A DNA stretch of 64,000 bases, taken from positions 1 through 64,000 of the IMG/VR virus record IMGVR_UViG_3300027874_000010; one strand, written 5' to 3'. Positions 2,232 to 57,550 of the stretch are shown in pieces. The first letter of the stretch is position 1. Every line of letters begins with the position of its first letter. A program made the position numbers and the translations under genes. The notes beneath the pieces were generated by a model, which did not search any database, was not told where the DNA came from, and saw only the letters and a program-made list of their open reading frames with translations. The DNA comes from a virus. Lineage: Duplodnaviria > Caudoviricetes.

Positions 2232-2247
2232 CGATAACCGGTTATCG
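2232..2247. repeat. 16-bp palindrome copy 1
   Basis: CGATAACCGGTTATCG immediately after MCP stop. Confidence 0.9.
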
Positions 2248-2248
2248 G

Positions 2249-3733
2249 CTAGGTGACGTTGCCCAGGCGGAAGGCGTCGATGTTCCACGGCGCGCCACCC
2301 ACGCGCTCCCACAAGATGATGCCGGTCTGGTCGGTGTCGGCAAACCGCTCGCGGAGGATGGTGATCGTAATCATGGCCCGCTCCGCGATGATGTAGCTGG
2401 AGAAGTCGCCGTACACGAGGCCGACATCACCCGTGGCCGCTGGATGGGTCACGAAATCGGACTTGTTGACGGGCTTGCCGAGGAGCGCTGGCTGCGGGCT
2501 ATCAAAGCCAGGTGCCCAAATGAAGGCACCCATGCCGTTGACCAACTGGCGGATGTCGTTCTCGGTGAGACGGTGGAGCAGCCACTGAGCGCCGTTCTGG
2601 TACTGGGACGGCAGCGCGTACTGCAGGTTCATCAGCTTGGGAGCCGACCCCATCGTCGCCGTGGTGTTGGAGATGGTGTGTGCCGTGGTGCCGGTCACGT
2701 CGAGCGCCGCGATGGGCGCGTTGACGATGCCCTGCGGCTGCATCGGTCCGCCATCGCCACGGATGAAGCCCTGGTCCTCGACCAACGCCATGTTGCGCGC
2801 GCCGTCCGTTGACAGGAACGTCAGCGGGTTGGTGATCGCGTCCGCCAGGAAGTCGTTGCTCAGCCGAGTCGCCACGCGGATCTTGCGGATCGGGATGTCG
2901 AAGAAGCCGAACGCAGGGTCCACGTCCTGAAACGCGGGAGTCTCACCAGCCCACGATCCCACGAAACCGCTGGTGAAGATCGAGCCGCCGTCAGCGCCCA
3001 GGGCACCCGACAGACCCGAGGTCGTGCCTGGCGCGGGCTGGATGCGCGGGAAGCGGAGCACGTCACGGGAGGTTTGACGCACCATCGCCATGCCGCGCAT
3101 GACCGCGTTCATGGGCAGGCGCGCGAGCACCTCGGCCTGCATGTCGGGCGGCACCAGATAGCCACCTGACTGGTCGATGCCTTCGGAGAGCGCCTTCTGC
3201 TCGGACGGCTCCAGCAGCGTGAACGCCATCGCCTCGTTCTTGGTGCGGATGGCGGTCGCGAACCACTTGTTGAAGACCTCTTTGTACTCGGGCTGCAGCG
3301 CCGCGCGAACCTGGCCGAAGTAGCGCTCCTCGTCCTCACCCTGGGGCGTGCCGAACAGCACGCGCTCGGGGTACATCGGGTGCGGACCGAGCGAGGTCGG
3401 CGCGTAGACCTGGCCGCTCTTGATCTCCCAACCCGCCTGGAGCATGGTTTGGCGACCGTCCGAGTCGGCGTTGATCGCGCCGCGCGGGGTCTTGTACTGC
3501 GGCGATTCGAGATAGGTGTGCAGATCTCGAACCTGATTGGCCTTCTTCTCAAGCTCATGCTCAAGATCGAGCCGTGGCTTGAGTTCCTCGGCCTTGGACA
3601 GCAGCGCTTCCAGCTTCATCTTCAACTCGGCTGGCATGTCCGACAGGTTGTCGCGCCAGCGCGGGTCGTCAATGATGAGTTGGGTCTGACGGTGGACCTC
3701 ACCCAACTCGGCGGCGAGTACCTTGACGCTCAT
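2249..3733 (-). CDS. HK97-family major capsid protein
   Basis: Coiled-coil delta domain, EQKALSEGIDQSGGYLVP, FIRGDG...PQGI, YGDFSSY, ERVGG. Confidence 0.95.
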   Translation of the reverse strand: MSVKVLAAELGEVHRQTQLIIDDPRWRDNLSDMPAELKMKLEALLSKAEELKPRLDLEHELEKKANQVRDLHTYLESPQYKTPRGAINADSDGRQTMLQAGWEIKSGQVYAPTSLGPHPMYPERVLFGTPQGEDEERYFGQVRAALQPEYKEVFNKWFATAIRTKNEAMAFTLLEPSEQKALSEGIDQSGGYLVPPDMQAEVLARLPMNAVMRGMAMVRQTSRDVLRFPRIQPAPGTTSGLSGALGADGGSIFTSGFVGSWAGETPAFQDVDPAFGFFDIPIRKIRVATRLSNDFLADAITNPLTFLSTDGARNMALVEDQGFIRGDGGPMQPQGIVNAPIAALDVTGTTAHTISNTTATMGSAPKLMNLQYALPSQYQNGAQWLLHRLTENDIRQLVNGMGAFIWAPGFDSPQPALLGKPVNKSDFVTHPAATGDVGLVYGDFSSYIIAERAMITITILRERFADTDQTGIILWERVGGAPWNIDAFRLGNVT

Positions 3734-3759
3734 GAGTCTCCTTACCCTCCAGTTGGGCT

Positions 3760-7192: not shown

Positions 7193-7403
7193 TGTGGTTC
7201 GCGATCACCTTCGCCATCGTGCAGTCGGGATCCGGGTCGTAGTGCGGGATCAGCCCGTCGCGCCGAGCTTCATCTACCCAGGCTTGAGCGGTGCCTTCGA
7301 GGTACTTGGCGCGCGCGGCGTGCAGGACTTCATCCTTCTCGGCGTGGACGTGCCCGGCGTCCACGATGTAGCGCTCGCCGCCTAGCTCGACGCGGGCGCT
7401 CAT
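7134..7403 (-). CDS. hypothetical protein (candidate immunity/partner)
   Basis: MSARVELGGERY...; ATGA-coupled to 7400-9754. Confidence 0.6.
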   Translation of the reverse strand: MSARVELGGERYIVDAGHVHAEKDEVLHAARAKYLEGTAQAWVDEARRDGLIPHYDPDPDCTMAKVIANHIKGRYSCAPAPPAEPGQRH

Positions 7404-9754
7404 GTCATCTCCGACAGCGGCGTCGGGAAGATCTGGCGACCACCCTCGCGCGCCTCGGCCAGTAGCTGTTGGGTGAAGTCGAAGCTCTGCGGGTCGTCGC
7501 GGGCGAACTTCACCGGGTCGTCGTGCATGAGTTGCAGCGCCATCGACAGGAACTCGTGGCTGGTCGGCGCGTTGGGACCGTAGTCCTTGCCCATGTACGG
7601 GTCCGCGAACTGGTCGCGGTGCGTCACCTCGTTGTCGTTGTAGTTGCTGCCAGTCACCGAGCGTAACGACACGGTTGGCTCGCCCTGGGTGCGGCTCTCG
7701 ATGTGCGCCTGGATGCGCGGCCCCATGCCCGGGATGTTGTCTTCGAGCCAGTGGCCCATCTCGTGGACCACCGTGCTGTCGGAGTTGTCGCGCGGGTGCA
7801 TGGTGACCATGCCCGTGCCGCTGCTGTGGTAGCTGCGCCCGCTGTCGAACCACTGGTCGTCGGGTGCCATGAACTTGATGCGCGGCTGAAGGAATCCCTG
7901 GGTCACCTGGCCGGTCATCTCGTTGATGCGCTGCACGCCCTGGGTCCAGTTCTTGGGCACCTCGGTGGCTGAGATCGGCGTCAGGTCGCCGCGATAACCG
8001 GTTATCGCCAGGTTGCCTGGGCCGGTCGGGGAGTTGACGTACTTGGCCCGAAGCTCGGCCGTCAGGTTGTCGCGCGCGGCGTCCACCTCGTGCTTGGTCG
8101 CCCAAAAGTTGTTTTGGGTCACATCCATGTTGTGCATCTGGCGGTCGAGTTCGGTCTTGGCGTCTTCGTACTCCTTGCCGTACGTGACCTGATCGTCCTC
8201 TAGCTGCTTGATGACCTCGGGCGAGGCCCCGAGCCGCTTGGCGTCCTCGATGCTTTTCGGCAGCGACCCCACCATGTCGCGCATGTCGCTCCAGTTCTGC
8301 GCGGCGTGCTGGTAGTCCTCGCCCACCTGATCGTATTGCCGCTGCGCCTCGGTCATGCGTGCCTTGAGTGACGCCGTGCGTCGGTCGGCTTCCGCGATCA
8401 TCGCCTCGCGCCTCGCGCGCATCCGCTCGGGGCTGGTGTCGGCACGGACGCCGCCGGTCGGCCCGACCACGGGCTTCGCCGCGCCCTCCTTGGGCTTGCC
8501 CCAGGAACTGACGAACCCCGCGCCGCCCTCGTCGGTGAAGCGACCCGTGTCAGCGTCGTGGTACGGGTTGAACTTCTCCTCGACGGTCTTGGCCTGGTCG
8601 CCGGGCTTCCAGTCTTCGGGTGCGCCCTGCTCGGCCCACTCGATGATGTCCTGCCAGATCTCCCACGCCTGCTCCTCGGTCATGTCGTCCGGCGGCTCGT
8701 CGGTCATCTTCATCATCCGTGCGGCGATGGCCTCGGGCGAGCGGTTGGTGAGTGCGCCGCCCTCGCGCCGCCACTGCTCCCACACCACGGCCTGGAACGC
8801 CGCAGGGTTCATGTTGCGCGCCGACGCTGCGCTGCGCACGCGGTCCGCCGCCCATCCGTAGCCGCCGACTGTCGTCGCGCTCGGGCCGCGCCCGATCTTG
8901 CGGCCCTGGATCAGCGTGTTGACGGCCTTGAGGTTGGCTTCGGTGTCCTCGTGCAGGTTCAGCATGGCGCGCCCCATGTGCGTATCGACGGTCACGTCGA
9001 AGGCCGACTCGGGGTGGCTCAGGTTGTTGTTGAAGGATCGGATCTTGTTGGCGTTGAACACCTCGTCCGGGTCTTCGCCGCGCAGCGCTCGGATGGCGTT
9101 CTCGGCGTTGTTGCCGATGAACGGGTACGGCTTGGAGTGCGGCGTGATCTCGCGGATCTGCTCAGGCGTCATGCCCGGGTGCGCGCGGTCTACCTGCACC
9201 ATCGCGCGCGCAGCTTCGAGGTTGGGCAGTCGCCCGTTCTTGAGGTTCCAGTTGGTCAGCGGGCTGGTCGCCGCGACCGCATCCGTGAAGCGCTGGCGGT
9301 CCACCCCGAGTTGGTCGGCCCACTGGCCGATCTCGTTGTGCTTATCGACGTACCAGTTGGCGTCTTCGGCGTGGCCCTGCTCGATGGCTCGGTCGTACAG
9401 ATCGAGCATGCGCTGCTCCGCGAGCTTGGCGGGCAGATGCGGCGGATCAACAGCCCTGGCGCGGACACCCGTCAGGTGCGCCGTGTCCAGGCCGGTCCGC
9501 GAGGACTTCCACGTCGAGAGGTGGGTGACCGGCGTGCTGACGCCACCGCCGCCACCAGATACGAATCTGCCGCCCTCACCCCTGGGGTGGAGCGACTCAT
9601 CCCACTCTTTGAGTTCGTGCAGGAGCAGGGCGCGTTCCATGTCGAGCAACGCCGCGCGCACATCACGCGGAGCAACCACGACACGACCGTGGGCTACGTC
9701 GAGGCTGACCTCGATCTCACGGAGCTTGGCCTGAAGCGCGTCCCACTCAAGCAC
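7400..9754 (-). CDS. two-module cargo protein: DUF7178/HhH-like domain plus coiled coil and zincin metallopeptidase
   Basis: KEWDESLHPRGEGGRF and KFNPYHDADTGRF motifs; AATSPLTNW, VTVDTHM, QAVVWEQWR; HEMGHWLE...EFLSM. Confidence 0.75.
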   Translation of the reverse strand: MLEWDALQAKLREIEVSLDVAHGRVVVAPRDVRAALLDMERALLLHELKEWDESLHPRGEGGRFVSGGGGGVSTPVTHLSTWKSSRTGLDTAHLTGVRARAVDPPHLPAKLAEQRMLDLYDRAIEQGHAEDANWYVDKHNEIGQWADQLGVDRQRFTDAVAATSPLTNWNLKNGRLPNLEAARAMVQVDRAHPGMTPEQIREITPHSKPYPFIGNNAENAIRALRGEDPDEVFNANKIRSFNNNLSHPESAFDVTVDTHMGRAMLNLHEDTEANLKAVNTLIQGRKIGRGPSATTVGGYGWAADRVRSAASARNMNPAAFQAVVWEQWRREGGALTNRSPEAIAARMMKMTDEPPDDMTEEQAWEIWQDIIEWAEQGAPEDWKPGDQAKTVEEKFNPYHDADTGRFTDEGGAGFVSSWGKPKEGAAKPVVGPTGGVRADTSPERMRARREAMIAEADRRTASLKARMTEAQRQYDQVGEDYQHAAQNWSDMRDMVGSLPKSIEDAKRLGASPEVIKQLEDDQVTYGKEYEDAKTELDRQMHNMDVTQNNFWATKHEVDAARDNLTAELRAKYVNSPTGPGNLAITGYRGDLTPISATEVPKNWTQGVQRINEMTGQVTQGFLQPRIKFMAPDDQWFDSGRSYHSSGTGMVTMHPRDNSDSTVVHEMGHWLEDNIPGMGPRIQAHIESRTQGEPTVSLRSVTGSNYNDNEVTHRDQFADPYMGKDYGPNAPTSHEFLSMALQLMHDDPVKFARDDPQSFDFTQQLLAEAREGGRQIFPTPLSEMT
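7992..8007. repeat. 16-bp palindrome copy 2
   Basis: CGATAACCGGTTATCG inside CDS. Confidence 0.9.
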
Positions 9755-10004: not shown

Positions 10005-10034
10005 ATAATAGCAAACTTTCGCACACGTTCAAAG
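10005..10034 (-). promoter_or_regulatory. GTGCGA-box promoter (minus strand)
   Basis: Reverse complement CTTTGA-ACGT-GTGCGA-N8-TATTAT. Confidence 0.65.
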
Positions 10035-10037: not shown

Positions 10038-13000
10038 TTAGCCCGTGTACTGGCGGTCGGAGCGCTTCTGCGCGTTCTCCCATGCTGTCCTGTCGTGGAT
10101 GATGACCTGACCCTGCTTGGTGCGTTCCGCGATGAGCTTCGCGGCTCGCTGTGGCGAACCCTTGGGTGCCCAGGTGTTGTCCCAAATCTTCACGCTGTCG
10201 TAGCCGGCCTCGCCGTTCAGGATGCGCGGCAGCATCGAGTTGACGCTGGTGTGCGCCGCCTCGATGATCGCCTCGTCCACGGGACGGTCGGTACGCCCCT
10301 TCGCGGCAGCGATGGCCTGGGGGATCGGCACCGTCAGGTAGTTGGCGTTGACCTCCCTGGCTCCGTCGTCGCGGTAGCCCTGGATCTTGGTCTGCAGCTT
10401 GGTCATGGAGCTATTCATGACGGCATCCACGACGGCGTTGCGGCCGTTCTGCAACGCCGTCTTGACCACCTTGCCCGCGATGTCTGAGGACTCCTCGTGG
10501 ACCTTCATCGCCCACTTGACCGAGCCAGCATCGCGCATGGCCTGCGTCTCGGGGATGTCCTCGGTCTTGTTCCAGTCGGCGTTGCTCCACACCGCGTGGT
10601 CCTTATCGGGCACGGCGAACTGCTCGGGGCTGCGCTGCAGCGCCGTGCTCTTGCCCGACGCGCCGCCACCGCCCAGGACGCTGACGGTCGGTCCCCCCTC
10701 GGCGGGTGGCACGTAGCCGCCGCCAGCCACACCTTGTTCGTGGTTCTCGTAGATGCCGTGTTGGGCGCGGTCGATGGCCGGCTCGTGTACCTTGTCCAGG
10801 CGCGCCTGCACGTAGTCGCCCTTCTTGCCGCCCTCGGGCATGTACAGCTTCTGAGTGTCACCCTTGTCGCGCAGGAAGCCGTGCGGGTTGTCCTTGGTAA
10901 TCAGCGACGAGGAGTCGCCCGACTCGACGTTCTCGCCGCCGCCGACGCCAGCGGCGAAGCGCCCCGAGTTGTCGCGCGGGTGCTTGTCCTCGAAGTCCTG
11001 ATCCTTGGTTTCGGGCAGATCGAGGATGTTCAGCCAGGTCTGCGTCTTGGGGCGGAACACCTGTACCGGCTGGCCCGCACCGAGCAGCGAGCGCTCCATG
11101 TCGCGGATCTGCTCGGTGACGGCCTTGGTCAACTCGTCGCGGGAGTCCACGATGGTGTGCTCCCACCCGTTCAGGTTGAGCTTGCCGTTCTTGTCGCTCT
11201 CCTCGGACGGCGCGTGCCCAGGCCAGTAGCCGGTCGCCTCGTGGTGCAGCCACGCGCACAGCGCCTGGGGGTTGTCCACCTTGTCGGTGAGCGTGTCCAC
11301 ACAGTCATCGAAGTCGCCCGGGTGCCCGCCGTCGAAGCGGTCCTTCCAGTAGTCGAGCAGTGCCTCCAGATTGCCCGCCTTGTAGCTCAGCCGCTCGCCG
11401 TCGTCCGCGACCTTGGTCGGCCACTCGCCCGTGGCGTGCTTGTACAGCCACGCCGTCACTTCGAGGTGGTCGTCCAGGGCTTTCATCGCCGCATCGAAGT
11501 CGCCGCCGCCGGCCGCGAAGGTGTCGCGCCAGTGGTTGAGTAGTTCCACCACCTCGGCGGTCTTCTTCTTCTTGGGCGGCTGGCGCGGGCCACCTGGCGG
11601 GACCATGATGCCGCCGTAGGTGTCGATGCCCTCGGTCAGGATCTTGGTGGCATTCAGCGGGATGGCGACCTGGCGACCATCGGTGCCCGAGTAGGTCAGA
11701 TCCCCCAGGGTGATGTGCATGCCATACAGCGGCGACCTCTGGCCGACGTACTTCGAGACGGCCGAATGCTTGATGTAGGCGATGGTCACGTGCGGCGTGT
11801 AGTTGGTGTGCGTCTCGACGTTGGCGAGCGAGCGCTTGATGATGCCGTTGAGATGGCCCGCGTCGTCGCTGGTGACGCTCACGTACAGCGGCACGCCGCC
11901 GCCCTGGTCCTGGCCGGCGAAGACGTAGTTCGGCCCAAACGTCATGGCGACCGGCGTCTGGTCCTTGACCACGCGCGCCACGTCGCTCGCGCCGACGTTG
12001 GGCATCAGCCCGTACTTGACGGTGACGTGCGGCTCCATCTCGATGCCGCCGCTGCCCAGGTCGTCGGGGTCGATGTGGTCCTCAGCCCACTCGACCAGTT
12101 CGTTGCCCAGGATCTCTGGCAGGTTGAGTTGCGTCGAGGAGTAGTCGTAGCCGCTGGTCGCGTCGGTCTTGAGCATGTACGGGTCTTGGCCGCACCAGGC
12201 GCACACGCCGAGTTCCACCGAGCGGTAGTGGCCCATGTCGTCTTCGGGGCAGTCGGGGATGATCTCGAACCGCCCGTCGCTGGTCATCTTCGTCTCGATC
12301 ATCTTCCCTCCTGGGCCGGCTGAGCCTGACTCCTGTGCGCCACCCGGTGGCGGTACGCCAGGGATGGATGGTGGTGCGCCGCCGCCGCCAGGTCGTCCGC
12401 CGAACGCGCCGCCGCCACCTGGCGGCAGGCCGGGCGGCTGGTCAGGCTGTCCTGGCGGCTTGTCCCCCTTGTGGTAGTTCGCCAGTTCGTCGGAGGGCGT
12501 CGGGATCATGTTGGCTGGCAGCAGCACCCACCCTGGCTGGTCGGTCGGGTAGCCGAGCGTCTGCGCCGCGACGTGCCACGGGATCAGGCCCGCCGTGAAG
12601 TCGGCACGCACGCGGGCGTGCACCTTGTCCACGTCCTCGGTGTAGCCCGGCACCTGGCTGAGGTCGAAGTCGAAGTGGTCAACCTCGGGGAAGTCGGGCT
12701 TGATCTGCAGCGAGAACTGCTGCGCCAGATCCTCGTACATCGGAGCCAGCGAGCCAGTCCACCACTGCGCTCGGTCCGACTCCTTGTTCGAGTTGTTCAG
12801 GCCCGACGAGGACTGGTGGCCGAGGACCGTCCAGATGATCGACGGCGGCACGTCCAGTACCGCGCAGATCTTGGACTCGGTGACGCGGTTGATGTCGTCC
12901 AGGCCCAGGCCCACCGGGTCCATGCCCATCTTGGTGTAGGTCGCCTGCCCGTTGTCGATGACCAAGACGTTGCCCCACCCGTCTGGCCCGCCGTACTGCT

Positions 13001-13727
13001 GGCGGAAGCGCTGGCGGATGATCTCGCGCTCGTTGGGTTCGACCGAGCGCATGATGTTGAGCAACCCGCTCGGCACGCCCGCGTTCCTGAAGAACGCCGT
13101 GGTGAACTCGCGGCACCACACGTCGATGTCGATGCGCTCGGCCAGCACCGCCAGCGGCGACAGGCCGTAGTAGTCGTTCAGCGGGTTGGGGTTCTTGAAG
13201 TGGATGACATCATCCGGATCCAGGGTGAACACCCGCTCCCCGATGCGGTACTCGTACGCCTGGATGTAGTCCTTTTCGTCAGGGATGATCCACACGCGGT
13301 CGGGTCGCAGCGGCCAGTACTCGATGATCTTGCCCGAGCGCCCTCGCACGATCTCCCAGTAGGCGTTGCCGTTGATCTTGAGCGCCACCACCGTGGACGA
13401 CCACAGCATGAACGTCGTCCACCACTTGTTGGGGCGGTTCAGGACATCCAGCGCGGGGTGGTCGAAGATGGCGTCGGCGTCGTGCGCCTTGGAATCGAAG
13501 ACCACCATGCGCGGCAGCGCCGCTGACTTCGCGACGGCCTGGCACGCGGCGAAGACGACCTCGGACCCCAGGTAGCCCTTGCGCGCCAACTGGTCGTACG
13601 AACGTTGGTTCCAGATCGGCGTGGCCGGCAGGCCAACCTGCCAGGTCGGGATGGCCGTCGCCACAGCCTGCTTCGTCTCGCCCCCGAACAGAGCGAGCGT
13701 GCGGAAGGCGTCGGCCAGCAGGCCCAT
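10038..13727 (-). CDS. HK97-family portal fused to 2H phosphoesterase (Acb1-like) and zeta-toxin-like P-loop kinase
   Basis: Portal motifs (GNAYW, LRPDRV, VIHFKNPNP, YGLSPL, FFRNAGVPSG); PHVTVKYG/PHVTIAY; GGGGASGKS, VHEESS, AVVD. Confidence 0.9.
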   Translation of the reverse strand: MGLLADAFRTLALFGGETKQAVATAIPTWQVGLPATPIWNQRSYDQLARKGYLGSEVVFAACQAVAKSAALPRMVVFDSKAHDADAIFDHPALDVLNRPNKWWTTFMLWSSTVVALKINGNAYWEIVRGRSGKIIEYWPLRPDRVWIIPDEKDYIQAYEYRIGERVFTLDPDDVIHFKNPNPLNDYYGLSPLAVLAERIDIDVWCREFTTAFFRNAGVPSGLLNIMRSVEPNEREIIRQRFRQQYGGPDGWGNVLVIDNGQATYTKMGMDPVGLGLDDINRVTESKICAVLDVPPSIIWTVLGHQSSSGLNNSNKESDRAQWWTGSLAPMYEDLAQQFSLQIKPDFPEVDHFDFDLSQVPGYTEDVDKVHARVRADFTAGLIPWHVAAQTLGYPTDQPGWVLLPANMIPTPSDELANYHKGDKPPGQPDQPPGLPPGGGGAFGGRPGGGGAPPSIPGVPPPGGAQESGSAGPGGKMIETKMTSDGRFEIIPDCPEDDMGHYRSVELGVCAWCGQDPYMLKTDATSGYDYSSTQLNLPEILGNELVEWAEDHIDPDDLGSGGIEMEPHVTVKYGLMPNVGASDVARVVKDQTPVAMTFGPNYVFAGQDQGGGVPLYVSVTSDDAGHLNGIIKRSLANVETHTNYTPHVTIAYIKHSAVSKYVGQRSPLYGMHITLGDLTYSGTDGRQVAIPLNATKILTEGIDTYGGIMVPPGGPRQPPKKKKTAEVVELLNHWRDTFAAGGGDFDAAMKALDDHLEVTAWLYKHATGEWPTKVADDGERLSYKAGNLEALLDYWKDRFDGGHPGDFDDCVDTLTDKVDNPQALCAWLHHEATGYWPGHAPSEESDKNGKLNLNGWEHTIVDSRDELTKAVTEQIRDMERSLLGAGQPVQVFRPKTQTWLNILDLPETKDQDFEDKHPRDNSGRFAAGVGGGENVESGDSSSLITKDNPHGFLRDKGDTQKLYMPEGGKKGDYVQARLDKVHEPAIDRAQHGIYENHEQGVAGGGYVPPAEGGPTVSVLGGGGASGKSTALQRSPEQFAVPDKDHAVWSNADWNKTEDIPETQAMRDAGSVKWAMKVHEESSDIAGKVVKTALQNGRNAVVDAVMNSSMTKLQTKIQGYRDDGAREVNANYLTVPIPQAIAAAKGRTDRPVDEAIIEAAHTSVNSMLPRILNGEAGYDSVKIWDNTWAPKGSPQRAAKLIAERTKQGQVIIHDRTAWENAQKRSDRQYTG

Positions 13728-14663: not shown

Positions 14664-14679
14664 CGATAACCGGTTATCA
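14664..14679. repeat. 16-bp palindrome copy 3
   Basis: CGATAACCGGTTATCA, intergenic after TerL. Confidence 0.9.
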
Positions 14680-20880: not shown

Positions 20881-21264
20881 ATGTCCACCACCAAGACGCC
20901 GTTCGTGCCGAGCTTCATCCCTGAGCCGGACGGCCTGCCAATCTGGAAGATGCGCGAGATCGAGCGGTCACGCCAGCACTTCATCGAGGGCGGCGCGTAC
21001 GTCGGCCCCGAGGGTGAGGTGCGCTGGTTCTCCAACGACAGCGTGGTCCCGGGCGACGTGTTCCGTGATGCCTACGTGCGGGTGCCCAACCCCGAGGCTC
21101 AGGAGCGGGTGCGCGACCGTGAGACGCAGGCGTTCCTGGCCGAGTACCGCCGGGCCAACAAGGGCCGCAAGCGGTCGGCTGAGGAGATATTTGAGATGCG
21201 CGCGGCCTTCGGCCCGGGCGAGACGGTTGTCGATGTGATAACCGGTGAGCGGTTCGAGACGTGA
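20881..21264 (+). CDS. hypothetical
   Basis: Strong SD; ends VVDVITGERFET. Confidence 0.7.
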   Translation: MSTTKTPFVPSFIPEPDGLPIWKMREIERSRQHFIEGGAYVGPEGEVRWFSNDSVVPGDVFRDAYVRVPNPEAQERVRDRETQAFLAEYRRANKGRKRSAEEIFEMRAAFGPGETVVDVITGERFET

Positions 21265-22133
21265 GTACGACCTACTCACCCTCCCTGTGCACGGCGGCGC
21301 GGGATCTCCCTGTTCGCCTGTCCGAGTGGTGGATGGAACCCAAGATGGACGGCATCCGTCTGCAGATGGTCGCCAGAGGTGGCCGCGTAGACTGCTACTC
21401 GCGGGCGGGGCTGACCTACAACGGTCGTATGCCCGCCGTCGAGGAGGCCCTGTCCGCCCTGGACGTGGTAGTCGATGGCGAGGTCGTCTGGTTCTCACCC
21501 GAAACGGGTGAGGTGGACTTCCACAAAGGCTCGGGCCTGTTCCGTCGCGAAGACTCGGCGCGGGCGCAGCGCTTCGAGGGGCCGCTGACCTACGTGGTCT
21601 TCGACATGCTCGAACTGGCCGGCCAGGATCTGCGCAAGCTGCCCATCGAGACACGGCGCGGCCTGCTGGCGCAGTTGGTCGAGGGCCTCGGGTGCCCGCA
21701 GCTTCGCCTGATCGAACAGGCCGAAGCGTCACCCGAGGCACAAGCAGCCTACATCGCGCGCTACCGCGAAGGGGTGGTCCTCAAGAAGAAGGGCAGCACC
21801 TACGTCGCGGGCCGGCCTCCGACCTGGCTCAAGCTGAAGGTGGTCGAGGATGCCGATGTGGTCATCACCGGCTTCGAGCGCGGCAAGGGCAAGTACGCCA
21901 ACACCCTGGGGTGCGTCGAGTTCAGCCAGTTCCGCGAGGGCCTGTTGGAGCGGCGCGGGACGTGCTCGGGCATGACCGACGCCGAGCGCGATCACATCTG
22001 GCACAACCGCTCCGAGTACGAGGGCAAGGTGCTGGTCATCCGTCACATGGGAGCCGATGGCGAGGGCTTCCGGCACCCACAGTGGAGCCACGTTCGAGAA
22101 GACAAAAACGCCTGGGAGTGCGTCTGGTCATGA
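21261..22133 (+). CDS. lig: ATP-dependent DNA ligase
   Basis: EPKMDGIR (KxDG), VVDGE, YVVFD, EGVVLK, WLKLK, C-terminal OB fold. Confidence 0.9.
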   Translation: MSTTYSPSLCTAARDLPVRLSEWWMEPKMDGIRLQMVARGGRVDCYSRAGLTYNGRMPAVEEALSALDVVVDGEVVWFSPETGEVDFHKGSGLFRREDSARAQRFEGPLTYVVFDMLELAGQDLRKLPIETRRGLLAQLVEGLGCPQLRLIEQAEASPEAQAAYIARYREGVVLKKKGSTYVAGRPPTWLKLKVVEDADVVITGFERGKGKYANTLGCVEFSQFREGLLERRGTCSGMTDAERDHIWHNRSEYEGKVLVIRHMGADGEGFRHPQWSHVREDKNAWECVWS

Positions 22134-25177: not shown

Positions 25178-25498
25178 TCAACTTTCGATGCTCAAGACGA
25201 GGCCGCGACCGTCGTTAGGGAAGCTCTCCTGATGCCCGGGCCACGCCACCAGCCAGTGGTAGAAGTACGCGCCAGGAACGTCCGTCTCGCCAGGTAGCCA
25301 GATGTGCTGCACCAGCCCCTGGGTCGCATCGGCACCCGCGATGGTCGCGGGCAGGATCGTCTCGATGCTGGTCGCCATCTCAAAGAGCTTGAGCGAGACG
25401 GTGGCGTCGGTGAGATCCACGGCACTGAGATCCGGGTTGAGCAGCGTGCCCGTGATTGTCGGCAGCGTGTCGGAGAGCTTGAGATAGAAGTCGGCCAT
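25178..25498 (-). CDS. BppU-like (baseplate upper/Ig-like) protein
   Basis: FYLKLSDTLP...VDLTDATV...GLVQHIW..GETDVPG.Y...ESFPNDG. Confidence 0.65.
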   Translation of the reverse strand: MADFYLKLSDTLPTITGTLLNPDLSAVDLTDATVSLKLFEMATSIETILPATIAGADATQGLVQHIWLPGETDVPGAYFYHWLVAWPGHQESFPNDGRGLVLSIES

Positions 25499-28400
25499 CA
25501 GCTTGGCTCCTCGCCTCGATTCGGGTTGCCCCACGTCACCTTGCCAGATGCACCCGCGCTGGTCCTAGAGCCGTAGGGCGAGCCACTGGTTGCCCTGCGC
25601 CGTCCGCCCGCCGAGGTGCGCCCGTTGCTGCCGCCCACTGAGGTCCGCGACGGACCGGTGTGGATGATCTGACCGTCACCGGTCGTGCCCTCGAAGCGGT
25701 TGATGTGCAGGGTCGCATCCAGCGTGGCCTGCCCAACGGATGACCCGAACAGCATCTTGAAGATGGCGATCTCGCATTCGAGGGCGACCGAGGTGAGCAC
25801 GCCCGATGGCGGCAGGTAGACCAGCAGCCCGGCCGCGAAGCTCGACTGCGCGACGGTGACCACCGTCAGGCCGATACGCAGCGGACTCAGGCTCGAAGAC
25901 GCCTGGGCGACCAGCGGCGGCGGCTGGATGTACTGATAACGGGTTATCGCTGCCGTGCTGCCCGAGGCCGTCAGCACCGTCGCCTGGACGAAGACCGTCA
26001 GCCCCGCTTGAGTGCCGCCCTGAGCCGCGCCCGAGGCCCCCAGGCCGATGGCGAGCACCGCGTCGAGGGTGACGTGGGTGGTGACGATGCCCGCGAACTC
26101 GGTGCCCGCCTGGACGAACGTCACACCCGAGGTCTGCGCCTGGGCGATGGTGACGACACTCAGGCCGAAGTTGACCGGCGGCGCGCTCAGGCTGGCCTGG
26201 GCGATGACCGTGCCCGAGAGCACCGCGCGCTGGCCGGTCTGCGCGCTCGACGCGGCCTGGGCGACGGACTGGCCCGCCAGCAGCAGGACGAAGGGGACGT
26301 TCTGGACCAGCGCCTGACCCTGGACGCTGCCCGCAACCAGCGTGTTGAGCAGTGCGTCGAACTGCGACTGGGCGCGGATCGGGAGTGGCACCAGCGTGGC
26401 ACCGAAGGCGCACGCTGAGATCGCCTGCGAGACAACCTGGCCGCTGAGCGCCACGCGCACCGTCAGCGCCGTGACGCTCGTGCTCGCCTGCGGCAGGACG
26501 CTGCCAGCCATGAAGTAGGTGATGAACGGGTTGGGGACGAAGACCGTCGCCTGGGCCGCGCTCGCGCCGACGAGTGGGGAGGCAGGCACCAGCGAGCACG
26601 AGGTGCTGGCCTGGGCGACGGTCAGCCCGGCGAGGCCGTACGTAGCGGGCAGTTGTCCCGTGGCCTGGGCCTGGGCGACCACAGATCCCTGCAGCGCCAG
26701 GGCGACCTGGGCCGTGGCCGTGGCCTGGGCGACCACGACGGCCGAGCCGATCAGCGGCGAGTAGATCGCGGAGAGTGTGGCCTGCGTCGTGATCTGGCCG
26801 GTCAGAAGCTCGGTGGCCGGGCCGAAGACCAGCGCCTGGGCCGTGACGGTGCCCGCCAGCCCGATGGTGAGCGTGCCGGTGCCCGTCGAGAGCGCAACGG
26901 ACTGGCTCGCCAGGAGCACCGTGGGTGCACCAAGCACTTCATCCAGCGCCGCCTGGGTGACGATGGCGACCGGTGCCAGGACCAGTTTGAGCGCCGCCGT
27001 GGTGTTGGTCGTGGTGAGGACCGCACCCGCCATCTGGACGCCGGTGCCGAAGGCTCCCGTCGAGATGGCCTGGGCGACGACGGCCTGCGAGCCGAGGGCG
27101 ACCTTGAGGCCAGGGATTGGCCCGACTTCATCCAGTGCCGCCTGGGTCGCGATGGTGCCCGCCAGGGCGTTGGCTTGGCTCAGCGCCGCAGTGCTTACTG
27201 CCTGGGTCGCGGCATTGCCAGCCAGCCCCAGGACCAGCGTGTTGGTACTCAGCACCTGGGTGACCGTCGCGCCCTGGAGCTTCGCCGTCAGCGTGGCTGT
27301 GGACTGCGCCTGGGTGACCGTCGCACCCGTAACCAGCATGCCGATGATGAGTTGCGCCGAGGTGCTCGACGCCTGTGCGGTGGTGACCTGGGGCGGGAAG
27401 GCGACGGTGATGATCGCGCTGGTCGATGCCTGCGCTGTGCCGATGCCGGTCAGGTTCGACATCGCACCGACGAAGACGGCCTGGGCGACGATGGTCTGGT
27501 TGCCGAGCGACAGCTTCAGCCCTGGGGTTGCGCCGATCTCATCCAGCGCAGCCTGGGTGGTGACCGTGCCCGTCAGGATGTTGACCTGGCTGAGCGCGCC
27601 AGCCAGCGTGACCTGGGTGACCGTCGCCGCTGGCAGGAAGACGGTTGGCGCGCTCGTACTGAGCGCCTGGGTCGCCGTCAGCCCCTGCAGCTTGAGGGTC
27701 GGCGCGGCTCCGATCTCGTCCAGTGCGGCCTGCCCGAAGAAGCTCGCCTGGAGCGCCTGGACCTGAACCATCACCGCGCTGGTGCTGGCCTGGGTGACGG
27801 TCGGTCCTGCCAGCAAGATCCTGGGCGCGCCGGTCGCGACGGCCTGGGTGACGATGCCCGGGGTACTCAGCCACTCGGTGAGCGGACCGCTGACGATGGC
27901 CTGGGCGATGACCGATCCCTGAACCAGCAGCGTCGGCGCAGCCAGGATCTCGTCCAGGCCGGCCTGGGTCGCGATGGTGCCCGCCAGCGCCTGCTTCGCC
28001 GTGAGCGTGCCGCTCAGCGTTGCCTGGCCGATGGAGTTGCCGCCGAACGCTGGCGCGACCTCGCGCGGCGCGCCCAGGACGATGCGCCCGAGCAGCGTCA
28101 TCGGCGTGCCCAGGACCGCCGTGTCGCGCAGCGCGATGCCGAGGCGCGTCGGCACACGAAGGTTGGCCGAGGTAACTGCCTGGGTCGCCACGACCTGGGT
28201 GCCGAGCGCGAAGCGCGGGCTGGCGGTGCTGACGGCCTGGGCGACGGGCGAGGCCGTCAGCATCTCCCACATCGGACCGATGACCGTGGCTTGCGCGACA
28301 GAGGTGCCCGCCAAACCAGCGGTCAGCGTAGTGAGCACCGGTGCGCCCTGGCTGACCGTCGCGCCCGCCAGTGCGAAGGCTTGGCTCAAGGTTGCGGACG

Positions 28401-32974: not shown

Positions 32975-32990
32975 CGATAACCGGTTATCA
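32975..32990. repeat. 16-bp palindrome copy 5
   Basis: CGATAACCGGTTATCA filling an intergenic gap. Confidence 0.9.
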
Positions 32991-36478: not shown

Positions 36479-36577
36479 TCACCACCAACGGAACCAGTAG
36501 TGGCCCGCGTCGAACATCAGGTCGAAGAAGAACTTCAGGATCAGGAACAGCAGGATGAGACGGACGAGAAGGATCAC
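36479..36577 (-). CDS. 32-aa hydrophobic peptide
   Basis: MILLVRLILLFLILKFFFDLMFDAGHYWFRWW; GTGA-coupled. Confidence 0.45.
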   Translation of the reverse strand: MILLVRLILLFLILKFFFDLMFDAGHYWFRWW

Positions 36578-37002
36578 GCCTCCGTAACTTTGAGCGCACC
36601 CGCCGCGAACGAGGCTGTCGCACCCGAGCCAACGGTCGTGGCCGAGCCGAACGTGCCCCAGTACAGCAGCGTGCCGACCGTCGCCGTGTCATAGATGCCG
36701 TAGCCCGTCGCCGCCGTCCAGCCTGCCGAGGCCGTGGGGAACGAGATCTGGTTGGCGTTGGTCTTCCACACGCCCGTGGCGTCGGTGGTCGTCGCGCTCC
36801 AGGCGGCTGCAGCGTTGGCCGCGTCGATGGTCGCCCGCGTGTAGCCCGATCCCGAAAGCTCCGTAAACGTGCCGTTGTCAGCCGTCGCCGTGGTGCTAAA
36901 CAGCGCCGCATAGCAGCCCGCCGGAGCCGTGTACGCCGCTTTGCCCAGGACGTACTGGAGGATGTTCGAGTCGGTCGTGGAACCGCGTCCTGATGTCGCC
37001 AT
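36574..37002 (-). CDS. Gp80-like phage tail fibre-associated protein
   Basis: YAALFST...TELSGSGYTR...NANQISFPTASAGW...GIYDTATVGTLLYWG. Confidence 0.7.
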   Translation of the reverse strand: MATSGRGSTTDSNILQYVLGKAAYTAPAGCYAALFSTTATADNGTFTELSGSGYTRATIDAANAAAAWSATTTDATGVWKTNANQISFPTASAGWTAATGYGIYDTATVGTLLYWGTFGSATTVGSGATASFAAGALKVTEA

Positions 37003-38046: not shown

Positions 38047-38684
38047 CACTTCACCCTGCACACGTTGCAATCGAGCGGCTCGTCGGTGAACTGCTTCATC
38101 CACGCTTCCGTCCAGCCGCCGTAGGGCCGGAAGCCCACGTTGACATCAGCCTTGCGGTCGTAGTTGCTGTCCCACAGCCGCCGCTCTGACCACCAGTCGT
38201 AGTCCGACCAGCCAAGCTGATCGAAGATCCACTTGCCCGTGTAGAAGGGTGAGTCGGGCACGATCTCGTCGCAGCGCAGCAGATCCGCGTCCACGTCGTC
38301 GGGCGTGAGGCCCATCTCCTCGACATCCAGTGCCACGAACACGATGTCGTCGGTGAAACGCTCGATCAGGTCCAGCCGACGCTGGAAGCGACCCCGGTCC
38401 ATCGAGTCGCCCGAGGAGCACCACACGTACGACGAGATCGCCCAGTTGTGGTCGAGGCCCGCCTGGAGTTGCTGAGCCGTGTAGCTGTAGCCATCCAGCC
38501 CGACCACCGCCTGGACGATCAGCCCGCTGTAGCCGAGCGCGCCCCAGTGCTCGAAGAAGTCGTCGCCCAGGACGCGCTGGTAGTTGGATACGTCCAGAGA
38601 CAACTCAGGCCACACGTCCTTGGGAAAGACGAGTGGCCCGGTGGGTGCCCATCGGCGGATGAGTCCCGCGCCGCTGATGCTCAC
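38046..38684 (-). CDS. GH25-family muramidase (endolysin)
   Basis: LDVSNYQ, VALDVEE, FYTGKW, LWDSNY, KQFT. Confidence 0.8.
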   Translation of the reverse strand: MSISGAGLIRRWAPTGPLVFPKDVWPELSLDVSNYQRVLGDDFFEHWGALGYSGLIVQAVVGLDGYSYTAQQLQAGLDHNWAISSYVWCSSGDSMDRGRFQRRLDLIERFTDDIVFVALDVEEMGLTPDDVDADLLRCDEIVPDSPFYTGKWIFDQLGWSDYDWWSERRLWDSNYDRKADVNVGFRPYGGWTEAWMKQFTDEPLDCNVCRVK

Positions 38685-41095: not shown

Positions 41096-41359
41096 ATGGA
41101 ACACTGCACCGTTTGCGGCCATCCGCTGGATGCGCACGAACCCGACAACGACGGCTTCGCCTGCACCGTCCCGTACTTCGACCCGCTCACCGACGAGGTG
41201 AGCTTCTGCACGTGCTCGCGGACGTGCTGCCTGCCCGAGCGCTGCCCGCACTGCCCTGAGTACCAGGGCCGCGCCGTGGGGTGGGGCGGCGGCAATCCCC
41301 GCCACATCTGCTGTCTGTGCCTGGATCTACCCGAGGAGATCCTCGCCGCCAACCCGTAG
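41096..41359 (+). CDS. Cys-rich hypothetical
   Basis: 13 Cys in 87 aa. Confidence 0.55.
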   Translation: MEHCTVCGHPLDAHEPDNDGFACTVPYFDPLTDEVSFCTCSRTCCLPERCPHCPEYQGRAVGWGGGNPRHICCLCLDLPEEILAANP

Positions 41360-42976
41360 CTGGAAGCGGCGGATCTGCGCCAGTCGGTGCTCCGAGAACC
41401 GATAACCGGTTATCGTTTTGGTCGCGAGCGCACTTCTGGCTTCGGGCGAGATCGGGTAGCCGTACTGGTCGGCCTTGCCGATCACCGCCTTGCCGAGCGC
41501 GGGGAACTTGTCGGCCATGAAGCTCGGTTCGTCGTGCAGCACCGAGTACGCCTCCGCGACGATCTCGCCCGGCGTGGTCTGGCCGTTGACGCCCCATATC
41601 TCGCCGTTTTTGCCCTTCGCGCCCATCGCCCCCTGGTCGGCCAGGTCGAACGCCGAGCCGTCCTTGAGCATCTCGTCGGACAGACCGTGGCCGATCTCGT
41701 GGTGGATTACCGCCTCCCGCTGGCGATTATCCAGATCGAAAAATTCTGAACCGAGGGTGATGTCGCTGCCGCCGCCGCGCCCGTGCTGGCCCTCGTGCCC
41801 CAGGCCGGCGTCGTACTTGAAGCCTTTGGGCGGATGGTCCTTGAAGTCCTGCTCGGACATGGCCGCGACCTTCTTCGGGTCGGCGTAGGTCGCCTGCACG
41901 CTGCCGCCGCCACCACCTACGGTCCAGCGACCCGACTCGTCGCGGGCCTGGTCCTCGCGAAACTTCAGCACGCGCGCCAGCAGCGGGTCCATCGCGACCC
42001 ACTGGCCCGGCCCCTGGACGGCGAGCACCTTCAGGATGGCTTCGAGCATCTTGGCTGTGCCCGCTTTCTGCGCGATGCCCATTGCCGTGGTGTACTCGCG
42101 CGAGGTGTCCAGAATCGTGCCGATGTCGGCGTCCACGCGCTGCACCGGCAGATCGAACTTGGTCTTGCCCGCTCTGAGGTTCGCCAGCACCGTCGCCGCC
42201 CACTGGTGGTGGCCGTCCACCACGTAGTCGTCCTTGCTAACAAAGATCGGCCGGATGTTGAGCTTGCCCTGCTCCAGGGCGTCGGCCATGCCCGCGACCT
42301 GGGGGCCGACCAGATCCATCTGAGTCGCCCGCAAGCTCTCGGCCGGCACGCGACCGTCCGTCACCTTGAAGCCCTGGTGCTCCAGTTCGTCGCGGAACGC
42401 CTCGCCTAAATTGACCGAGCCGCGCGAGTTCTTGGGGTACTTCGACTCGTCGTCGGCTGGACTGCCCTTGGTCGGCGGGCCGGATAGTTGCGGCATCTGC
42501 ACGCGCGGGATGCCCAGGGACTGCTGCGTAAAGAGGTTGGTGCCCGGCACGGTCACCAGGCCCAGGTCGTACGTCGGGGCCTTCTCACCCTTGGCGACGG
42601 CATCCTCAGCCATGTCCCCGAGCTTGTCGGTCAACGTCACCACCTGGCGGGCCTGGTCCAGGCGCACGTGGTGCCCGGCATGGATCTCGCGTACCGCGTG
42701 GTCGAGGTCGCCATCGACGTAGATCGGATGCGCCATCGAGCCATCCGCGTTCGGGTCACCGCCGGTGTGCGGCACCTGAGCGACAGCGTTGTGCGCGGCG
42801 TCACTGTGATCGGGTGGTGGCGACGACGATGGGGTCGTCGCACCCCCTCCCCCGCCAGACGAGAACTCGCCGCGCTCGTTGCGCGGATGCTGCGATTCGT
42901 CCCACTCCTTGAACTCGACGCGCTCCAGTACCGCGCGCATGGCCTGGATCTCGCGGGTTAGCTCGGCGCGGTCCAT
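41327..42976 (-). CDS. two-module cargo protein: ParB/Srx-like domain plus zincin
   Basis: KEWDESQHPRNERGEF; LRATQ...IFVSKDDYVVDGHHQW; KFREDQARDESGRW; HHEIGHG...EIVAEAY. Confidence 0.8.
   Translation of the reverse strand: MDRAELTREIQAMRAVLERVEFKEWDESQHPRNERGEFSSGGGGGATTPSSSPPPDHSDAAHNAVAQVPHTGGDPNADGSMAHPIYVDGDLDHAVREIHAGHHVRLDQARQVVTLTDKLGDMAEDAVAKGEKAPTYDLGLVTVPGTNLFTQQSLGIPRVQMPQLSGPPTKGSPADDESKYPKNSRGSVNLGEAFRDELEHQGFKVTDGRVPAESLRATQMDLVGPQVAGMADALEQGKLNIRPIFVSKDDYVVDGHHQWAATVLANLRAGKTKFDLPVQRVDADIGTILDTSREYTTAMGIAQKAGTAKMLEAILKVLAVQGPGQWVAMDPLLARVLKFREDQARDESGRWTVGGGGGSVQATYADPKKVAAMSEQDFKDHPPKGFKYDAGLGHEGQHGRGGGSDITLGSEFFDLDNRQREAVIHHEIGHGLSDEMLKDGSAFDLADQGAMGAKGKNGEIWGVNGQTTPGEIVAEAYSVLHDEPSFMADKFPALGKAVIGKADQYGYPISPEARSALATKTITGYRFSEHRLAQIRRFQLRVGGEDLLG
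41400..41415. repeat. 16-bp palindrome copy 6
   Basis: CGATAACCGGTTATCG. Confidence 0.9.
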
Positions 42977-43158
42977 GCGGGATCTCCGTCCTCGAACTGG
43001 ATGCCGTGGTCGCCCGGGTACGTCTGGCGATGCTCGATCTTGGACTGCCAGATCTCGTCGGGGATGCCGTGCGTAAACGCCTCGCAGCGCATGAACGCCT
43101 TGGGTGGCGGCGCTTCGAGGTGGATGCAGTGCAGGCAGATGGCTGGTGGGAACTTCAC
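42958..43158 (-). CDS. small CxxCxH...CxAFxxGIP protein (candidate immunity)
   Basis: CLHCIH...CEAFTHGIPDEI...H...PGDHGIQFE; ATGA-coupled to giant gene. Confidence 0.75.
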   Translation of the reverse strand: MKFPPAICLHCIHLEAPPPKAFMRCEAFTHGIPDEIWQSKIEHRQTYPGDHGIQFEDGDPAWTAPS

Positions 43159-53892: not shown

Positions 53893-53894
53893 CG

Positions 53895-55941: not shown

Positions 55942-55971
55942 GTGTGAACCCGTGCGAGTGTGGTATAAATT
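55942..55971 (+). promoter_or_regulatory. GTGCGA-box promoter variant
   Basis: GTGTGA-ACCC-GTGCGA-N8-TAAATT. Confidence 0.5.
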
Positions 55972-56007
55972 AGTGTGGCCTCCGAGGGGGTCACAGAGAG
56001 GAGTCGA

Positions 56008-56421
56008 ATGACCGACAGTCGGTTCAACCCGTACCGCTACGTCTATGACGAAGTGGCGCGGGAAACGCGGGCCATGTACGACGTGTGGTCGGGGACGGAG
56101 ATCCCGCCCGACACGCGCCCCGTGGTCTTCCCTGAGACGTGCCCGGCGTGTGGCGCGGAGGCCGTGGCCCACGGCACGTTCTGGCGCAAGCCAGTCACCT
56201 ACGCCTGTGGCGGCGGGTATGACTCGAAGCCACAGATCCAGAACCACCGCGACGTGTGGTGGGGACACTGCCCCGTGACGAAGGCCCAGGTTGAGGCCGA
56301 GGCCGAGGCAGCAGGCATGGTCAAGACCGAGTTCGGGGGCTACATCCCTCGCGCTCAGGCCGAGGCCGAAGGCTGGACATTGGGTAGATGGGGTTACCAG
56401 CGCCCCACGGGAGTTCGGTGA
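56008..56421 (+). CDS. hypothetical with CxxC
   Basis: SD GAGGAG; CPACG. Confidence 0.6.
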   Translation: MTDSRFNPYRYVYDEVARETRAMYDVWSGTEIPPDTRPVVFPETCPACGAEAVAHGTFWRKPVTYACGGGYDSKPQIQNHRDVWWGHCPVTKAQVEAEAEAAGMVKTEFGGYIPRAQAEAEGWTLGRWGYQRPTGVR

Positions 56422-56864
56422 CCACCATCCCCTTCGTCTTCGATGACGGCGGCCGGGAGGCCGCCGGATTCAGGGGCATCGCAGGCGACTGCGCTGTCCG
56501 AGCTATCGCCATCGCCACGGGCAAGCCGTACCGCGAGGTGTACGACGCGATCAACGCCATCGCCAGGACGACCAGGCGGCGCAAGAGCGGCAAGCGGTCG
56601 AGCGCGCGCGATGGCGTCTTTGTCGAGGACATGCACCGCTACCTGGGCGGCGTGCTCGGCTGGACCTGGCACCCGACAATGCACATCGGCTCGGGCTGCA
56701 CGGTCCACGTGCGGGCTGACGAACTGCCGCCAGGTCGCCTGGTGCTCAACCTCAGTCGCCACTTCGCAGCGGTGATCGACGGCACGCTGTTCGACACCCA
56801 CGACTGCTCGCGCGACGGTACGCGCTGCGTCTATGGCTACTGGCAACCACCTGGGGGCGCGTGA
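56418..56864 (+). CDS. papain-fold-like conserved phage protein
   Basis: GDCAVRAIAIATG..Y...HFAAVIDG.LFDTHDC. Confidence 0.7.
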   Translation: MTTIPFVFDDGGREAAGFRGIAGDCAVRAIAIATGKPYREVYDAINAIARTTRRRKSGKRSSARDGVFVEDMHRYLGGVLGWTWHPTMHIGSGCTVHVRADELPPGRLVLNLSRHFAAVIDGTLFDTHDCSRDGTRCVYGYWQPPGGA

Positions 56865-57532
56865 TGCGCCCCTTCTCTGTGCGTACCACCTCCCAGGAGG
56901 AGCGCCTGGTGCGCGCTCGGGATCTGGTGGACGCCCTGGTCGTGGCCCGCGCCACCTGGCCGGAGGATGCGTTCGTCAGCGTCATCGAGGCTCCCGAGCC
57001 ACCCCGCCGACGCCCTGGTTGGCAGAAGGGCCGACCGCGACCGTTCACCCACTGCGGGTGGTGCGGGCAGCGCGGCCACAACGCCAGGACATGCCCCGAT
57101 TGGGACAAGGCTCACCAGCCGGTCGAGACGCTCGGTGACTGGCTGCTGCGCAACCAGCCGCAGACCCTGGAGCAGGCCATCGCCCTGGACCCGCCCGTCG
57201 AAGCGCCCAGGCCGACCAGGGTGGTCGAGCCAGATCCCGCCGATGTCGAGCGCACCCCCGATGGCGTCCGCCTGTGCGAGTGCGGCGAGCCGTCCATCAG
57301 TCAGAAGAACACCCGTGTGCGCACGTGCCAGCGCTGCCGCGACATCGAGGAGGCATCGACCCACCGAGGCGACCACGTGCGGGGTGCCCACCCGACGCCG
57401 AACACGAGCTACAAGGTCAACTTCAACCCGACCACGAGGCTGCTGCCGCAGCTTGACTCGCGCACGATCCACTCGGGTCTGGCCGAGGTCATCCGCGAGA
57501 TGAACCGCCTCAAGCCGTTCACCACGATGTGA
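56864..57532 (+). CDS. hypothetical with zinc knuckle (CCHC) and CxC motifs
   Basis: HCGWCGQRGHNARTC; CECG; CQRC. Confidence 0.6.
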   Translation: MRPFSVRTTSQEERLVRARDLVDALVVARATWPEDAFVSVIEAPEPPRRRPGWQKGRPRPFTHCGWCGQRGHNARTCPDWDKAHQPVETLGDWLLRNQPQTLEQAIALDPPVEAPRPTRVVEPDPADVERTPDGVRLCECGEPSISQKNTRVRTCQRCRDIEEASTHRGDHVRGAHPTPNTSYKVNFNPTTRLLPQLDSRTIHSGLAEVIREMNRLKPFTTM

Positions 57533-57534
57533 GC

Positions 57535-57550
57535 CGATAACCCGTTATCG
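57535..57550. repeat. 16-bp palindrome copy 8
   Basis: CGATAACCCGTTATCG just after a stop codon. Confidence 0.85.

Follow-up and report, generated by a model that had tools for sequence, protein, structure and literature searches.

Copies of the palindrome and the genome that carries them

The stretch analysed here (the window) is the first 64 kb, positions 1 to 64,000, of IMGVR_UViG_3300027874_000010, a 74,412-bp IMG/VR viral contig (G000; 65.7% GC) from an uncultured soil phage of the Caudoviricetes, and the element under study is a 16-bp palindrome, YGATAACSSGTTATCR, that is dispersed along it. An earlier examination of the letters and open reading frames (ORFs), below called the sequence-only reading, had placed eight copies in the window, four of them intergenic or at gene ends (2232, 14664, 32975 and 57535) and four inside coding sequences (CDSs; 7992, 25934, 41400 and 48759). 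All eight were recovered as exact matches in these settings, and none of 100 dinucleotide-preserving shuffles of the window produced any match. The sites of the contig are listed below together with one half-decayed copy; gene calls were GC3-based and supplemented by family searches.

2232..2247: copy CGATAACCGGTTATCG, 1 nt past the stop codon of the minus-strand MCP gene (Phage_capsid domain at 2258-3166) and 3 nt ahead of a GC-rich terminator-like hairpin
7992..8007: copy inside a 784-aa DUF7178 gene (7400-9754, minus strand), reading A-I-T-G-Y-R with the rare codons ATA, GGT and TAT
14664..14679: copy CGATAACCGGTTATCA, 45 nt past the TerL stop codon and immediately behind a hairpin with a 14-bp stem
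21236..21251: half-decayed copy TGATAACCGGTGAGCG, with one perfect half and the centre, about 10 nt ahead of the start codon of a DNA ligase gene
25934..25949: copy TGATAACGGGTTATCG, inside a gene for a 2305-aa, fibre-like Laminin_G_3 protein, 150 codons ahead of its stop
32975..32990: copy filling the junction of two minus-strand genes; the upstream ORF terminates at the motif's own TGA-TAA, with the next ATG 4 nt further on
41400..41415: copy inside a 619-aa gene (41327-43186, minus strand), 25 codons ahead of its stop, reading T-I-T-G-Y-R
48759..48774: copy in the middle of a 2892-aa gene, reading D-N-G-L-S and including a rare TTA codon
57535..57550: copy 2 nt past the stop of a plus-strand gene and 35 nt upstream of a TTGCGC-17-TATTAT promoter
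68422 (contig position, past the window): ninth copy, which possibly ends a 40-codon ORF

A single phage genome of ~147.2 kb, circular or permuted, is represented in IMG/VR by four contigs, G000, G002, G003 and G007. The second of them, G002 (72,120 bp; 65.3% GC), has eight copies of the motif, six exact and two with one mismatch, all matching the 16-bp consensus, and G003 and G007 are fragments of the same sequence as G002. The assignment follows from the contig ends: positions 1-123 of G000 are the exact reverse complement of positions 1-123 of G003 (123-bp overlap at 100% identity; G003 1-791), which continues into G002, while G000 74381-74412 is identical at 31 of 32 positions to the reverse complement of the last 32 bases of G002 (72089-72120), and uninterrupted ORFs cross both junctions. 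The composite map measures 147,168 bp, and its ends meet in a closed circle, with the junctions at composite positions 74412|74413 and 147168|1. Head genes are present in G000, which is without tail or replication genes; G002 holds contractile-tail, lysis and DNA-metabolism genes and is without capsid, portal and terminase. Tail-fibre repeats are all that the two contigs have in common. Two inter-site gaps span the junctions; at 8,984 and 7,173 bp they are within the range of the remaining gaps. A viral scan with a 502-aa gene of G002 matched only contigs of this phage. Soil runs X1-X7 contain the phage at about 10x depth. The CheckV completeness estimates of 67% and 81% are misleading for the two contigs, which are pieces of one genome.

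Conservation, spacing and placement of the sites

A scan of the full genome, for which the sequence-only reading had called, finds 15 exact 16-mers and two one-mismatch copies on the ~147-kb map, against 1.4e-4 expected, an enrichment of about 1e5-fold. Two further copies are half-decayed (three mismatches; 21236 and 137451); each retains one perfect half-site and the centre, and they sit in two of the larger gaps, the first in the 11.3-kb gap between 14664 and 25934. Within the window, a search of the 14-bp core at up to two mismatches gains just one position, 21237. Mismatch counts are bimodally distributed, with matches either near-perfect or else at chance level (four mismatches, 4 against 3.0; five mismatches, 29 against 27.6), and conservation of the motif is all-or-none. 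Half-sites that had been proposed near 22974 and 55609 turned out to be lone hexamers at chance frequency (7 GATAAC/GTTATC against 7.5 +/- 2.5 expected); the copy at 21236 is the better partial site.

The centre of the motif is CG in nine exact sites, CC/GG in six and GC in none, and the consensus is therefore a perfect 8+8 palindrome, YGATAACC-GGTTATCR, in which one central change is tolerated. Nothing beyond the 16 bp is common to the copies in G000; the flanks show a weak A-A-S preference per half-site, which lengthens the site to about 22 bp. The two flanks of one site do not pair with one another in the G000 half, and such a half-site preference without mutual pairing would favour protein contacts over RNA pairing. 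The motif is the sole repeated palindrome in either half of the genome.

Beyond the metagenomic origin of the contigs, nothing suggests that the sites stem from chance, from faulty assembly or from a tiny mobile element, and this explanation is effectively refuted. Besides the shuffles, which gave no match, the sites are unchanged in independent assemblies from several soil samples, whose contigs bridge them; the assembly artefact for which the sequence-only reading had allowed thus finds no footing. There are no target duplications or shared flanks, and the copies inside genes are in frame and made by codon choice. No contig end coincides with a motif site, an observation on contigs, in which nicks would be invisible.

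The spacing of the sites, for which the sequence-only reading had given just a range, is far too even for chance and is the strongest statistical feature of the array. Gaps between exact sites on the composite circle range from 5.8 to 16.2 kb with a coefficient of variation (CV) of 0.33, a value that random placement on the circle reaches with P 1.5e-5; none of 200,000 trials reached the observed minimum gap. A gene-aware null model, in which the numbers of coding and non-coding sites were kept, gave P<1e-5 for the CV and P 2e-5 for the minimum gap. Even spacing is also found in each half alone (G000, P 1e-4; G002 exact sites, P 0.006).

Placement relative to genes is biased as well. Six of the 17 sites lie wholly within a called CDS, against 86.5% expected (P 1.6e-6), and 11 do not; eight or nine abut or contain a stop codon. 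Since the motif reads TAA in one frame of three on each strand, a gene end is the cheapest place to build a site, and we read the bias towards gene junctions as probable cost avoidance rather than a translational function. Copies centred on CCC/GGG are divided 3 against 3 with respect to the transcribed strand, so there is no orientation bias.

A stop codon is adjacent to or part of about half of the sites, and two adjoin terminator-like hairpins, which might instead indicate that the motif acts in RNA, as a cistron-end hairpin serving as a terminator, a processing site or a stabiliser. We regard this as very improbable. The hairpin that the motif could form is weak (-2.6 kcal/mol), has no T-run and no covariation, and includes C/A outer mismatches; the sequence is invariant, without compensatory changes, and the outer pair is C/A or T/G in seven sites regardless of the transcribed strand. 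Of the sites, six are intragenic, including two in mid-gene, and the placement at junctions is explained by coding cost. An intrinsic terminator or RNA hairpin was rejected on account of the weak fold, the missing covariation and the flanks that do not pair.

A role in individual promoters was likewise rejected. About ten copies of a cassette TTGCGN-N4-GTGCG-N(7-9)-TAnnnT are present in G000, each followed by AGGAG and a start codon:

Window 10005-10032 (minus strand), 19351, 52894, 53610, 57586, 58474 and 62210; contig 68456, 70492 and 72003: promoter cassettes

The palindrome occurs near only two of these, 18 and 35 nt upstream of the -35 element, and most sites have no promoter nearby; the cassette is separate from the motif, which is therefore neither a promoter element nor an operator. 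The cassettes form a family of sigma-70-like promoters whose spacer contains a conserved GTGCG box.

The expectation that copies inside genes constrain codon choice was borne out. Three of the four such copies in the window share one phase, (A/T)-I-T-G/R-Y-R/Q, with the spelling ATA-ACC-GGT-TAT, and the fourth, at 48759, is spelled GAT-AAC-GGG-TTA-TCG. These copies draw on codons that are rare in the genome: ATA (3% of Ile), TAT (10% of Tyr), GGT (14% of Gly) and TTA (0.8% of Leu). At the codon frequencies of the genome, a fraction of about 2e-4 of I-T-G-Y peptides would be expected to have the spelling ATA-ACC-GGT-TAT. In L032 and L033, which are homologues of the 784-aa gene at 62-66% identity, a similar peptide is spelled with ATC-ACG and GGT-TAC, and the motif is absent. 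Because the copies use rare codons and the homologues spell a similar peptide otherwise, the copies inside genes are kept by selection on the DNA sequence.

Outside this genome the array was not encountered. The capsid and TerL genes have relatives at 80-92% protein identity on three contigs (L016, L017 and L021). Behind the capsid gene, a one-mismatch copy (GATCACCGGTTATC) is present in L016, and L017 carries an unrelated stretch of about the same length; the hairpin and motif that follow TerL are replaced in L021 by a small ORF. A related strain that is more abundant in soil run X3 (depth ~31 vs ~10) skips or replaces positions 2199-2267 (69 bp), which comprise the hairpin and the motif. The sequence-only reading had linked its proposal to conservation among relatives, and in this it was partly contradicted, as relatives of 80-92% identity are without orthologous sites. 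The array is thus lineage-specific and young, or rapidly lost, and its absence from relatives argues for a recent, lineage-specific accessory system and not for chance or artefact. No other repeated palindrome was found in 31 kb of close relatives, and a switch of specificity, with a different palindrome in relatives, was rejected for this reason; G013 and G014 were discarded as not being real relatives. IMG/VR scans with three 16-mers and one 14-mer, together with whole-record counts of ~25 contigs, found at least two good copies only in G002, G003 and G007, and the remaining contigs with matches are low-GC chance single hits. A literature search for the motif sequence itself returned nothing relevant.

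The sites might also be bound by a protein of the host, for instance a nucleoid protein or a regulator of the TetR/GntR type, which the phage would then exploit. Palindromes with an AAC-NN-GTT core are typical of TetR-family operators, which counts for this explanation, as does the fact that a phage reader is not pinned down. We nevertheless hold it to be distinctly unlikely, since sequenced cells make no multi-site use of the motif: a search of 185,579 species, represented by one genome apiece, found 58 scattered single copies of the exact 16-mer and no multi-copy genome, five of these cellular genomes searched whole had one core copy each, and six of 401 sampled Actinomycetota genomes had a single core copy. 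Close relatives, presumably with similar hosts, are without the sites. The argument that two unrelated phages share the motif, so that a host factor reads it, was rejected once the overlapping ends of G002 and G000 made them halves of one genome. A host regulon or a host repeat of the REP, DUS, matS or NBS type was rejected as well, no multi-copy cellular genome having been found, although the actual host is perhaps unsampled.

A predicted symmetric reader and its candidates

The proposal that the palindrome is a dispersed binding site for a dimeric protein has become the best-supported reading, to which the dyad, the all-or-none conservation, the independent half-site flanks, the lack of a stable hairpin and the selection at synonymous positions all point. 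Because dyad symmetry and all-or-none conservation coincide with half-site flank preferences and with selection on the DNA letters, the palindromes may be sites on duplex DNA that are recognised, genome-wide, by a phage-encoded protein acting as a symmetric dimer or tetramer. We consider this formulation the most likely mechanism, although evenly poised between right and wrong. Such a protein would bind each palindrome with high affinity, and selection would keep one site per ~6-16 kb around the whole ~147-kb chromosome. Sites would arise where they are cheapest, in short intergenic gaps, the TGA or TAA of the motif often being reused as a stop codon; where no gap is available, a site would be written into a gene with rare synonymous codons.

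That the sites are evenly spaced, indifferent to local context and not associated with promoters suggests a chromosome-covering role. The bound protein might act over kilobases, by spreading, sliding, looping or blocking processive enzymes, and a regular array would then cover the genome; its role would be chromosome-wide (silencing, insulation, protection or organisation) rather than the control of individual promoters. In a more specific version, which we put forward tentatively and which may well prove wrong, the lineage has recently installed, by point mutation including synonymous recoding in giant genes, a regular array of loading or anchoring sites for a non-ParB protein that coats, loops, insulates or protects domains of ~9 kb.

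The sequence-only reading had offered three functions for such sites: parS-like loading, stoperator-like roadblocks, and marks for genome organisation or packaging. The evidence picks none of them. Genome organisation fits the even spacing (P about 1e-5). The preference for gene junctions agrees with stoperators, whereas the symmetry of the sites, the missing orientation bias and the location of six of 17 sites inside genes do not. The motif resembles parS in being a near-perfect palindrome within the 13-16-bp range; against this, a six-frame search of G000 and G002 for ParB_N (PF02195), which detected 11 of 14 control genomes, gave no match at E<=1, and Pfam scans of the giant proteins gave no ParB domain. 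A link to a ParB-like cargo, which had been raised as speculative, therefore finds no support, and the best-understood mechanism for acting at a distance is here without its protein. Other proteins could be considered as readers:

Contig 66886-67167: XRE HTH protein (Pfam), candidate reader
G002 half: two HTH_17 proteins (G002 36509-36997 and 38279-38548) and one RHH protein (G002 28003-28224) (Pfam), candidate readers
Window 61559-61996, plus strand: free-standing PDDEXK_5 protein of 145 aa (PF11645, 2.4e-33) that matches 2OST (I-Ssp6803I; E 5.5e-6)
G002 48664-50118 and 50310-51251 (L168 8664-11248): two beta-class N6A/N4C DNA methylase genes, with a motif copy between them at G002 50293

The PDDEXK_5 gene, which is located among small early-type genes, opens a different explanation, in which the sites are programmed cleavage or nicking sites of this I-Ssp6803I-like PD-(D/E)XK endonuclease; regular breaks would seed recombination-dependent replication, recombination or repair, and a ligase would reseal them. 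When aligned to 2OST, the protein keeps the catalytic core YDL...VQxK (D...QxK). I-Ssp6803I itself is a tetramer whose target is a 23-bp pseudo-palindrome, the half-sites of which are read by two of its subunits (PMC3384342); such a mode of reading would suit a dyad of 16-22 bp and all-or-none conservation. The phage also encodes an ATP-dependent DNA ligase (21261-22133), the one whose start is preceded by the half-decayed site, and a break-seeded process with limited tract length would explain the even spacing. However, free-standing homing-type nucleases normally hit one site in rival genomes and not 15 in their own. Moreover, contigs of several runs bridge the sites and end elsewhere, although nicks would leave no trace in contigs, and a protecting modification is not demonstrated. 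On balance we think cleavage by this enzyme rather unlikely, but it is the leading alternative.

The two methylase genes flank one copy exactly, and the N-terminal ~220 aa of the larger methylase form a domain of no assigned family, which could suggest that the motif is a target or nucleation site of phage DNA methylases and serves as an epigenetic mark. Methylase targets, however, normally span 4-8 bp, and these genes have just one of the 17 sites in their vicinity, so that little probability attaches to this explanation.

Several observations weigh against genome-wide recognition by a symmetric phage protein. The binding protein is not pinned down among the candidates, and a ParB/KorB-type domain appears to be absent from both halves. 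No recognisable DNA-binding gene adjoins a site in the G000 and G002 halves. That close relatives are without sites at orthologous places implies a function that is dispensable or very young. The spacing tests were picked after the data had been seen, although the effect is large. Finally, the composite map was assembled from contigs of different samples, and one of its junctions consists of the 32-bp overlap and a continuous ORF.

Further features of the contig were recorded alongside the array. The giant genes at 25498-32415 and 43155-51833 (both on the minus strand) hold internal DNA repeats, which indicate tandem protein modules: GGCCTGGGCGAC occurs about eight times at 26.2-28.5 kb and ATGTACGACAACAC five times at 44.4-51.2 kb. 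Three Laminin_G_3 domains make up part of the 2305-aa protein, whereas Pfam gave no match for the 2892-aa protein. The portal protein (1229 aa; 10038-13727, minus strand) is fused to 2',5' RNA-ligase-like (2H) and Zeta-toxin-type kinase domains. At least eight small genes on the plus strand have GTGACCACCACCA (a GTG start followed by Thr-Thr-Thr) at or beside their start, in each case preceded by an AGGAG Shine-Dalgarno sequence; it seems to be either a start-associated sequence that these genes share or an N-terminal MTTT tag common to them:

Window 52943, 57638, 58522, 59726 and 63341; contig 69139, 72055 and 73748: copies of GTGACCACCACCA

Comparison with known dispersed sites

The palindrome is a real, strongly non-random cis-element of the phage, and dispersed invariant dyads have been seen before, in Cluster O mycobacteriophages. 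Other phages carry conserved repressor sites that are scattered genome-wide, many of them intergenic, such as the C1 operators of phage P1 and the CIR operators of Streptomyces phage phiC31. Unlike the motif, these lie at or near the promoters that they control, and those of P1 are asymmetric. To our knowledge, even spacing has not been reported for either.

Stoperators prefer short intergenic gaps, overlap start and stop codons, and block elongation away from promoters. Those of Cluster A phages, read by an L5 gp71-type repressor, are 13-bp asymmetric sites that are bound by a monomer, oriented with transcription and spaced roughly every 2 kb (PMC9283540). Numerous near-perfect dispersed sites and a preference for gene junctions are common to both systems, whereas stoperators are asymmetric and oriented and the sites described here are dyads without orientation. 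No homologous stoperator repressor was found in the phage.

KorB-OB of plasmid RK2 and ParB-parS comprise dispersed palindromes, some of them far from promoters or within genes, onto which a protein loads and from which it slides over kilobases (PMC11790492). Sliding over such distances would make regular coverage useful. In these systems, too, the palindromes are perfectly conserved around an S centre (TTTAGCSGCTAAA); the length of parS, 16 bp, is that of the motif. In contrast to our phage, both systems need a ParB_N/CTPase protein; their sequences are unrelated to the motif, and parS sites cluster near origins instead of being evenly spaced. The likeness to I-Ssp6803I lies in the phage homologue and in a family that reads a long pseudo-palindrome through two subunits of a tetramer, but for intron homing that enzyme targets one site only, within a tRNA gene, and its phage homologue is no more than a candidate for recognition of the motif.

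The closest published precedent is the set of repeats of the Cluster O mycobacteriophages (Corndog and relatives), a 17-bp dyad TGTTCGG-NNN-CCGAACA with more than 30 copies in ~70 kb, for which a dimer has been predicted and whose function is unexplained (PMC4351075); the two form a descriptive class, not a homology family. Both have invariant inverted 7-bp arms around a variable centre and many dispersed copies, about a third of them in genes. Both also lie mostly off promoters, show no orientation bias of the centre and have a predicted dimeric binder. They differ in sequence, in the length of the centre (3 bp there, 2 bp here) and in copy number, which is 15-17 in 147 kb here. Corndog sites crowd one end of the genome and the Cluster O repeats are conserved across the cluster, whereas the sites here are evenly spread and missing in relatives.

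Regular spacing, low density, the codon imprint and the absence from close relatives set the array apart from Cluster O repeats, stoperators and KorB/OB alike. The extreme evenness points to a function by distance or coverage rather than local gene control, the codon imprint shows selection on the DNA itself, and the relatives without sites make it a young system whose gain is open to comparative study. With about five recognisable candidate readers the problem is tractable, and finding the reader would establish a new type of genome-wide cis/trans system in viruses, together with a very specific and very rare 16-bp protein-DNA pair. If the sites do form an array that covers the chromosome, they would constitute a chromosome-scale cis-element system in a virus, with even spacing itself as a selected trait, and the Cluster O repeats, which have gone without explanation for a decade, might then belong to the same category.

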